Origin: Bacteroidales bacterium
GTDB lineage: Bacteria > Bacteroidota > Bacteroidia > Bacteroidales > UBA4417
DNA: 64,000 nt
Reading direction: 5' to 3'
NCBI GenBank assembly: GCA_016707785.1
Contig: JADJGZ010000014.1
Span: forward strand, 4,225 to 68,224
Part shown: positions 1,735 to 36,258 of the stretch, one piece after another
How the letters are laid out: the number at the start of each line of letters is the position of its first letter
Position numbering within the stretch: position 1 is the stretch's first letter
Notes under the pieces: model-generated
Databases searched by the model: none
The model's input: only the letters and a program-made list of their open reading frames with translations
Told to the model about the DNA's origin: nothing
Made by a program: the position numbers and the translations under genes

Positions 1735-4628
<2,894 letters not shown>

Positions 4629-4682
4629 GATGCTCGATGTCAATTATAAACATCAATCTAATTTATGTATTTTCTTTCAGTA

Positions 4683-4694
4683 TGTCAAAGAACG
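4683..4694 (-). promoter_or_regulatory. boxA-like antitermination box in the 16S-23S spacer (copy next to 23S)
   Basis: The minus strand reads CGTTCTTTGACA. Compare the E. coli rrn boxA TGCTCTTTAACAA and the Gram-positive form TGTTCTTTGAAAA. Confidence 0.45.
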
Positions 4695-4771
4695 TAGTGA
4701 TTTCGGATTTTTGAATTCGGATTTCGGATTTTTAAAGTCCTATATTCGAAATTCGCGATCCACAATCGACT

Positions 4772-4817
4772 TGTGGAGAATAAGGAGTCGAACCCTTGAT
4801 CTGTCGTTTGACAGATC
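4772..4817 (-). pseudogene. tRNA-Ala 3' remnant (T-arm plus acceptor 3' strand only)
   Basis: The minus strand reads GATCTGTCAAACGACAGATCAAGGGTTCGACTCCTTATTCTCCACA. It matches the T-arm and 3' end of the neighbouring tRNA-Ala, but there is no 5' acceptor strand or D-arm. Confidence 0.55.
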
Positions 4818-4834
4818 TTCCAAAATTTCCAGCA

Positions 4835-4846
4835 TGTTAAAGAACG
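4835..4846 (-). promoter_or_regulatory. boxA-like box in the spacer (copy next to tRNA-Ala)
   Basis: The minus strand reads CGTTCTTTAACA, a 10/12 match to E. coli boxA TGCTCTTTAACA. Confidence 0.45.
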
Positions 4847-4915
4847 TTGTGATTTCGGATTTTTGATTTCGGATTGCGGATTTAATAAATCCAAAATTCG
4901 CAATCCACAATCCAA

Positions 4916-5012
4916 TGGTGGAGAATAAGGGATTCGAACCCTTGACCCCTAGCTTGCCCGGGGGGCGTTAGTGCAAAGCTAGTGCTCTAGTCAACAACTG
5001 AGCTAATCCCCC
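4916..5012 (-). tRNA. tRNA-Ala(UGC)-like gene, 97 nt and aberrant (17-nt insertion after the anticodon loop, oversized D-loop)
   Basis: The minus strand reads GGGGGAT TA GCTC AGTTGTTGACTA GAGC A CTAGC TTTGCAC [TAACGCCCCCCGGGCAA] GCTAG GGGTC AAGGG TTCGAAT CCCTT ATTCTCC ACCA. The G3:U70 pair, UGC anticodon, T-arm and encoded CCA are canonical. The D-loop is 12 nt and lacks the GG pair. Confidence 0.7.
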
Positions 5013-5024
5013 AAAACGACTGTG

Positions 5025-5098
5025 TAGTCCCGCGCAGAGTTGAACTGCGGACCCCTACATTATCAGTGTAGTGCTCTAACCAACTGAGCTACGGGACT
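5025..5098 (-). tRNA. tRNA-Ile(GAU)
   Basis: The minus strand reads AGTCCCG TA GCTC AGTTGGTTA GAGC A CTACA CTGATAA TGTAG GGGTC CGCAG TTCAACT CTGCG CGGGACT A. This is a full cloverleaf at the canonical spacer position. Confidence 0.9.
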
Positions 5099-5224
5099 AT
5101 TAATTCCTTTTCCCTCAGGGCAGCGCCCTCACTCACTCGCTTGGGTTAACAATAAAAACATGAAGTCAACACAGTAGTGAATATCCTTCCCGTCATTACT
5201 GACGGGACCAGAATAAATCACTCT

Positions 5225-6748
<1,524 letters not shown>

Positions 6749-35904: not shown

Positions 35905-35981
35905 CGGTCCGGACGGGACTCGAACCCGTCCCGTCTCGTCACCAGTGACGAGACGGGATGCCATGCACGTATTCTAACCAA
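35905..35981 (-). pseudogene. tRNA-Asp-derived 3' fragment (D-loop to 3' end) with the anticodon-arm 3' half and variable region replaced by a perfect GC hairpin
   Basis: The minus strand reads TTGGTTAGAATACGTGC ATGGCAT CCCGTCTCGTCAC-TGG-TGACGAGACGGG AC GGGTTCGAGTCCCGTCCGGACCG. The flanks are identical to the intact tRNA-Asp, but there is no 5' acceptor strand or D-stem. Confidence 0.6.
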
Positions 35982-36258
35982 TTTCTTGTTTATTAAAGTC
36001 TTTAACAGAATTCATCTCCGATTGAATCAATTTCTCAATAGACCTAACTTTCAGTCGCTTAAGCCGAAGTTCTTCAATTAAGGCGTCCCTTTTGGTTTCA
36101 TAGGAATGCAAATAAACCAGCACCCATGGACCTTTAAGTGCAGTATGACGACTTTTGTTGGAGTTATGTTCAGTAAATCTTCTCAAAGGATCCTCAGAAA
36201 CTCCTTTGTAGTATTCATTGACAGACTGTGAAAAAATGATATAAACGTAATAAGGCAT
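35974..36258 (-). CDS. Small GIY-YIG nuclease family protein (94 aa)
   Basis: MPYYVYIIFSQSVNEYYKGVSEDPLRRFTEHNSNKSRHT..KGPWVLVYLHSYETKRDALIEELRLKRL: the GIY (YVYII) ... YIG-like (YYKG) ... R ... H-N ... E pattern is present. The track ORF start (36369) lies inside the tRNA-Asp gene and is rejected. The stop codon TAG lies inside the tRNA fragment D-loop (GGTTAGAAT). Confidence 0.8.
   Translation of the reverse strand: MPYYVYIIFSQSVNEYYKGVSEDPLRRFTEHNSNKSRHTALKGPWVLVYLHSYETKRDALIEELRLKRLKVRSIEKLIQSEMNSVKDFNKQEIG

Follow-up and report, generated by a model that had tools for sequence, protein, structure and literature searches.

The rRNA (rrn) operon of a Bacteroidales genome carries, at the spacer position of tRNA-Ala(UGC), a gene with an insertion beside its anticodon and an abnormal D-loop. 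We asked what such a gene can be. The first-pass annotation of this DNA had left three answers standing: a recently inactivated spacer tRNA, a tRNA with a short intervening sequence that must be removed, or a consensus error in a collapsed operon. The window referred to throughout is the whole 64,000-nt stretch analyzed, which belongs to contig C14 of the genome under study (G000). The assembly of this genome comprises 61 contigs and is 96.5% complete.

A spacer tRNA-Ala(UGC) gene with three lesions

The operon lies on the minus strand and reads 16S, tRNA-Ile, tRNA-Ala-like gene, 23S, and 5S (Table 1). Rfam model RF00005 matched the tRNA-Ala-like gene from window position 5012 to 4919 with 53.1 bits (E = 1.4e-8 for the window), above the cut-off of 29 bits, and left 19 bases unaligned in the anticodon loop. 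The covariance model run that had been recommended as a check therefore returned a tRNA. ARAGORN did not call the gene with its intron option on or off. A protein gene was also sought in the spacer; the 76-aa open reading frame 3' of the tRNA-Ala-like gene is a low-complexity translation of heptamer repeats.

Direct reading gives an acceptor stem of GGGGGAU/AUUCUCC with the G3:U70 pair, a D-stem of GCUC/GAGC around a 12-nt loop (AGUUGUUGACUA, also written GUUGUUGA), and an anticodon stem of CUAGC/GCUAG with the anticodon UGC. The order in the anticodon region is UUUGCA, then CUAACGCCCCCCGGGCA, then A. The acceptor stem with its G3:U70 pair, the T-arm, the CCA end, and the complementary stem strands CTAGC/GCTAG are thus all present, as initially described.

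Table 1. Coordinates of rrn operon features in the window, with the evidence for each
Feature	Window position	Strand	Evidence or remark
16S rRNA	6750-5227	minus	
Hairpin UCCCGUCA-GUAA-UGACGGGA, 16S-tRNA-Ile spacer	5188..5207	minus	Same family as hairpins of crippled tRNA-Pro copies
Intact spacer tRNA-Ile(GAU)	5024..5098	minus	ARAGORN and Rfam, 69.9 bits
tRNA-Ala(UGC)-derived spacer gene, 97 nt including CCA, three lesions	4916..5012	minus	RF00005 and identity to G042
D-loop AGUUGUUGACUA: GUU duplication and G19 to A	4988..4999	minus	G042 alignment, fold
Nucleotides 32-37, UUUGCA, with anticodon UGC	4972..4977	minus	Direct reading
17-nt insert CUAACGCCCCCCGGGCA at 37/38, mini-hairpin GCCC-CCC-GGGC inside	4955..4971	minus	G042/G016 alignment, fold
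T-arm, acceptor 3' strand (U70), and discriminator A, intact	4919..4943	minus	Identical to G042 and G016
Hairpin GAUCUGUC-AAAC-GACAGAUC directly beside the stump, at the site expected for the remainder of the tRNA	4798..4817	minus	Direct reading
Decayed 3' stump of a second tRNA-Ala (T-arm, acceptor 3' strand)	4773..4797	minus	Self-match 82.5%, direct reading, G042 alignment; belongs to the ~152-nt spacer duplication
23S rRNA	4625-1733	minus	

The nearest species in our collection, G042 (16S rRNA 97.8% identical), has an intact 77-nt tRNA-Ala(UGC) at the corresponding location that scores 70.8 bits with RF00005. Relative to this gene, the copy in G000 has the 17-nt insert, a GTT duplication in the D-loop, a G19-to-A change, and nothing else. 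Outside the insert and the duplication, 76 of 77 aligned positions match, so the gene is not a chance resemblance. Comparison with a second relative, G016, gave the same picture. The initial description of a 97-nt spacer tRNA-Ala(UGC) carrying a 17-nt insertion was accordingly borne out by direct reading, by RF00005, and by both alignments. Its 12-nt D-loop lacking the conserved GG can be traced to the two D-loop changes: where G042 has AGUUGGCUA, G000 keeps G18 and has lost the GG pair. The insertion site required refinement. The length of 17 nt stands, but the loop had been read as TTTGCAC with the insertion at its boundary with the 3' stem strand; because the intact G016 and G042 orthologues have the loop UUUGCAA, the insert is best written as CUAACGCCCCCCGGGCA between A37 and A38. 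GCA is repeated at both ends of the insert, and the placement can therefore slide by 3 nt, from 34/35 to 37/38.

All three changes fall within 45 nt, at the tips of the D and anticodon hairpins, and every stem is spared. The anticodon arm in this lineage is a near-palindrome, CTAGCTT-TGC-AAGCTAG, and the insert lies at its apex. Instead of a seven-nucleotide anticodon loop closed by a 5-bp stem, the stem strands are separated by 24 nt. The predicted fold retains the acceptor and T arms, turns the D-arm into an extended hairpin, and places the anticodon in a 9-nt internal loop, with a 4-bp mini-hairpin (GCCC/GGGC) alongside. From established tRNA structure, such an RNA would be unable to present a normal anticodon loop.

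Relatives, tRNA complement, and assembly quality

The lesions are private to G000. None of 44 congeners carries the 17-nt insert, and a gapped pattern with Bacteroidota-type flanks had no match among ~185,000 species representatives (GTDB). In the species-representative genomes, a looser gapped pattern matched only ten intron-bearing genes of archaea, one scaffold gap, one false positive, and an unusual Flavobacteriaceae tRNA. A scan of metagenome contigs for the insertion gave one unrelated 15-nt tandem duplication only. Searches of G000 and the genus for a second copy of, or donor for, the 17-mer produced chance-level matches only, and the GC patch of G042 is not a repeat family. The Flavobacteriaceae gene, from an uncultured metagenome-assembled genome (L059:898-951), is tRNA-like, with an additional hairpin of ~14 nt (TGAAACAGATTTCA) placed after TTGCAAG and ahead of the T-arm; this gene is the sole bacterial match of the loose pattern that is not obviously an artifact.

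The 16S-Ile spacer of G000 is 86.8% identical to that of G042 (~13% divergence), while the tRNA-Ala-like gene has zero substitutions outside its lesions, which argues for a recent event. A 77-nt pseudogene that had long been dead would carry about five substitutions on the G000 lineage; this one has none beyond the lesions. We infer a recent event, or else continued selection on the acceptor and T halves as an rRNA-processing signal. Gene conversion in a single tract, with a crippled paralogue as donor, would also be compatible with three changes clustered within 45 nt.

A check for other tRNA-Ala(UGC) genes or rrn copies in the assembly, also recommended in the first-pass annotation, came back negative. 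No intact tRNA-Ala(UGC) was found on any of the 61 contigs by DNA search, by ARAGORN with and without introns, or by RF00005; the only other alanine tRNA is GGC. In long open reading frames, GCA accounts for 32% and GCG for 6% of alanine codons, and a working UGC tRNA must therefore exist. The assembly also lacks tRNA-Asn(GUU) and contains only two tRNAs with a CAU anticodon, of which bacteria normally need three, so the tRNA set of the draft is incomplete. It holds one rrn operon, with no rRNA fragments elsewhere.

Members of this genus tend to have two rrn operons that are unequal in tRNA-Ala content. The closed congeners G005 and G057 have two operons each, with intact tRNA-Ala in just one; G014 has the intact gene in both. 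The other operon of G005 and G057 has no intact tRNA-Ala and retains only a degenerate tRNA-Ala-like element with a CCCGRT...ATCGGG hairpin for an anticodon arm. Four of the congeners examined carry this element as a second, degenerate copy 3' of tRNA-Ala: G005 (L073/L077), G057 (L074/L078), G022 (L071), and G014 (L075/L079). It may act as a conserved, tRNA-like signal for processing. In G005, the region collinear with the rrn locus of the window comprises the outer flanks of a tandem rrn pair. Given this synteny and the two operons of closed congeners, a second rrn operon, either unassembled or collapsed, is reasonably expected in G000. With one rrn operon, no tRNA-Asn, and one CAU tRNA short, the absence of an intact tRNA-Ala(UGC) is weak evidence.

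The quality of the assembly varies by region. Patches with internal poly-G/poly-C and homopolymer stutter occur mostly in G-rich heptamer-repeat spacers (C26:45732-46001, C24:34032-34333, C60:43827-44043, C2:274628-274740, and about 30 more). They reach up to 270 nt of near-pure G, and some contain CCCCCCGGG-type runs like the insert. Within the 16S rRNA, at window position ~5835 (16S position ~916), the universal run GACGGGGGCCCGC appears with four Gs rather than five, G000 reading GACGGGGCCCGC; this is probably a homopolymer error in the assembly. It is the only clear homopolymer error in the rRNAs of G000. In the 20 kb adjoining the operon, all 23 matching G042 open frames (at least 120 aa) align in one piece and one frame.

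Hairpins in damaged tRNA copies and spacers

Several other tRNA copies in G000 are damaged in the anticodon region, as this gene is. A 94-aa GIY-YIG gene in the window (35974-36258; Pfam E = 1.6e-14) has two tRNA-Asp copies with CCCGTC...GACGGG hairpins next to it, and tRNA-Pro copies carry a TCCCGTCA...TGACGGGA hairpin. This hairpin family, TCCCGTCA-NNNN-TGACGGGA, is found in the 16S-Ile spacer and, repeatedly, around duplicated Ser/Pro tRNA loci that include the crippled tRNA-Pro copies (C1:13805-15119 and C58:1017-2553). At C58:1668-1725, the 3' part of a tRNA-Ser has a ~37-nt insert in its T-loop. On the minus strand of C5:9000-9700, a tandem array of about seven ~100-nt units comes after a tRNA-Gly(CCC). 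Each unit consists of a tRNA-Gly copy without an anticodon arm (Rfam tRNA, ~27 bits) and a terminator-like hairpin with a T-run. In one of these units, a CCCCGCAGCTGCGGG hairpin replaces the anticodon arm.

Comparable structures occur in the rrn operon itself. At the site of the hairpin that abuts the tRNA-Ala stump (Table 1), G042 has a different GC-only sequence; the stump hairpins of the two species contrast as GATCTGTCAAACGACAGATC versus CCGGGGGGGCCCG. A ~152-nt tandem duplication of the spacer (window 4683-4947) takes in the tRNA-Ala 3' part, heptamer repeats, and a GTTCTTTGACAT 23S-leader box. Because this duplication is common to G042, it is older than the tRNA-Ala lesions. Variable helix tips of the 23S rRNA, at 23S positions ~1206, ~1756, and ~2223 (CCGTCATTTATGACGG, CCCCGCATCTGCGGGG, and CCCGCATCTGCGGG), resemble the hairpin motifs of the spacer and of the crippled tRNA copies.

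Intron, artifact, or disabled copy

That the insert is a true short intervening sequence at 37/38 of the sole tRNA-Ala(UGC), removed or tolerated so that the gene remains functional, strikes us as highly improbable. The position is compatible with the canonical 37/38 site (PMC4033280), as the 3-nt repeat makes the placements from 34/35 to 37/38 equivalent. The gene is also the sole UGC alanine tRNA in an assembly where GCA codons are abundant, its stems are all intact, and its exon sequence is perfectly conserved. The insert is nonetheless absent from congeners having the gene and from every other bacterial genome scanned, and the loss of G19 and the D-loop expansion would persist after splicing. 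A bulge-helix-bulge (BHB) has two 3-nt bulges, with a 4-bp helix between them, at the exon-intron junctions; the minimum-energy fold here has, on the 3' side, a continuous 7-bp helix, CUAGCUU/AAGCUAG, with no 3-nt bulges, and hence no BHB. Profile searches of G000 (96.5% complete) for the endonuclease (PF01974) and the RtcB ligase (PF01139) found no match, whereas control genomes matched both families. A permissive Rfam scan of window positions 4600-5240 found no intron families. Self-splicing group I (and II) introns are the only other interruptions known in bacterial tRNA genes, and the group I introns in anticodon loops of cyanobacteria and alpha- and beta-proteobacteria have a catalytic core of ~100 nt (PMC4033280), in agreement with the background given in the first-pass annotation. 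The gene resembles those cases in being a bacterial tRNA gene interrupted beside the anticodon, but 17 nt is too small for a group I core. It resembles archaeal and eukaryal genes with protein-spliced introns (PMC4033280) in the shortness of the insert, in its 37/38-compatible site, and in the partial pairing of the insert with the anticodon region. It differs from them in its bacterial host and in having no BHB fold, no endonuclease or ligase gene that could be found, and no conservation. A literature search turned up neither short non-group-I insertions in bacterial tRNAs nor GIY-YIG or hairpin insertions in anticodon loops. In view of the missing conservation, BHB, and endonuclease and RtcB genes, a conserved, spliced intervening sequence is unlikely. 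A route of removal or tolerance that uses no group I core, BHB, EndA, or RtcB would be one not known in Bacteria, and we give it very little credence.

An assembly or consensus artifact deserves considerably more weight, although we think it the lesser possibility. The true gene would then be intact, and the anomaly would come from a local mis-consensus or from the merging of two unlike rrn copies into a collapsed operon, one with an intact tRNA-Ala and one with a crippled, hairpin-bearing tRNA-Ala-like element. G000 does contain homopolymer-rich junk patches by the dozen, and most occurrences of CCCCCCGGG, a motif enriched several-fold, lie in them. Poly-G tracts of at least 14 occur in G000, G042, and G057 and in neither G005 nor G016; they therefore depend on the assembly rather than on genus biology. 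The 16S rRNA has G4 where every relative has the universal G5, the counterpart of the locus in G005 is a tandem pair, and the second, hairpin-bearing tRNA-Ala-like copy of congeners could contaminate a consensus. The paradox of a missing essential tRNA would also disappear. On the other side, contig C14 has no clustered G/C-run junk patches, the 20 kb beside the operon has no frameshift, and the rRNAs differ from those of relatives almost only by compensated helix-tip changes. The patches elsewhere lie in G-rich simple repeats and not in unique conserved sequence. This insert has sharp boundaries, and the sequence flanking it is perfect on either side. Random noise would rarely place three changes exactly at hairpin tips and leave the stems intact. 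Locally, errors run at about one single-base slip per 4 kb, a rate far too low to predict two multi-base indels in 97 nt. Such indels could arise if two unlike rrn copies had been collapsed into one consensus.

If the lesions are real, a cause can be proposed, though the one we can name is doubtful. It is a sub-case of the real-lesion reading in which the 22-nt twin-hairpin mini-element of G000 (CCCCGAAGGGGAGCCTTTGGCT, also written CCCCRAAGGGGAGCCTTYGGCT) was inserted at the apex of the anticodon arm, or in which a small GIY-YIG/Ssn-like nuclease cut the hairpin tip there and repair of the cut left the insert. The element has 41 to 57 copies in G000, 34 of 41 inserted after TG and usually before C. 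The insert has a TG^C flank that fits these 34 copies, with the caveat that its placement is ambiguous. Read on the plus strand at cttG^Caaag, the insert is CCCGGGGGGCGTTAG and shares CCC..GGGG.GC.TT.G with the element, of which a similarly garbled copy occurs on C13. Crippled tRNA copies with anticodon-loop hairpins also adjoin the 94-aa GIY-YIG gene of the window. Several observations weaken this proposal. The best alignment scores 6, which is not significant against composition-preserving shuffles (p = 0.065), the CCC..GGGG pattern was drawn after the insert had been seen, and the insert, at 17 nt, falls 5 nt short of the element and has no second hairpin. The degenerate SRM search sequence of Ssn nucleases, taken from PMC11893778, matches 0 sites in the window and 11 in the genome, and the spacer contains no nuclease gene. 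The hairpin-bearing crippled tRNA copies of G000 (Asp, Pro, Gly), a genome with a small, Ssn-like GIY-YIG gene in the window, are alike in placing GC-rich hairpin sequence at the anticodon-loop position, but the change here is a clean insertion in the primary copy and not a replacement in a side copy. The locus further departs from Ssn/SRM systems (PMC11893778) in having no adjacent nuclease gene and no SRM match at the tRNA-Ala-like gene. We accordingly treat the link between a hairpin-tip event and hairpin/nuclease elements, as the cause of the insert, as a lead only.

The reading we favor, with confidence that stops at about even, is a real, recent, non-decoding copy of tRNA-Ala(UGC), with the working gene in an unassembled rrn operon. 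Of the three answers first offered, recent inactivation fits best: the lesions are private while the remainder of the gene equals its orthologues, the predicted fold keeps the acceptor and T arms with no 7-nt anticodon loop, G005 and G057 carry intact tRNA-Ala in one of two rrn operons, and in G000 hairpins occupy the anticodon-loop position of several crippled tRNA copies. Counted against the disabled copy are the lack of an intact UGC gene in a 96.5%-complete assembly despite 32% GCA, the flaws of that assembly, the possible collapse suggested by the G005 tandem pair, and the want of a donor for the insert. In common with tRNA pseudogenes and non-decoding relics, the gene keeps its acceptor and T arms and has an unusable anticodon loop. 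It is unlike them in having no intact paralogue in the G000 assembly and in the very young age of its lesions, with zero substitutions elsewhere. There is also a parallel to the unequal spacer tRNA content known among rrn operons, as the gene occupies an rrn spacer in which the operon copies of congeners differ in tRNA-Ala.

As a mechanism, we propose that the spacer tRNA-Ala(UGC) descendant was recently disabled as a decoder. Together, the GTT duplication, the change of G19 to A, and the 17-nt GC-rich insert would remove the G18-G19 elbow contact and hide the anticodon within an extended helix and an internal loop. The lesioned transcript could probably still be charged by AlaRS; it would not read GCA or GCG. 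Since the acceptor stem with G3:U70, the T-arm, and CCA are untouched, the transcript could still act as an RNase P or 3'-end processing signal in the rRNA precursor. Decoding would fall to a working tRNA-Ala(UGC) in a second rrn operon, one that the draft assembly lacks or has collapsed.

What the locus means depends on which explanation holds. Were the gene an artifact, the draft assembly would be untrustworthy at the single-gene level in the rrn operon, and annotation pipelines would report the organism as having no tRNA-Ala(UGC). In the unlikely event that it is the sole working gene, it would bear on short tRNA introns in Bacteria. If the lesions are real, the locus would not establish a new principle; it would be a further case in which one rrn operon has had its spacer tRNA gene disabled and would provide context for the hairpin/GIY-YIG tRNA cassettes of G000. 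It would then point to a genus in which rrn operons are unequal in tRNA-Ala and tRNA genes are repeatedly affected at their hairpin tips.
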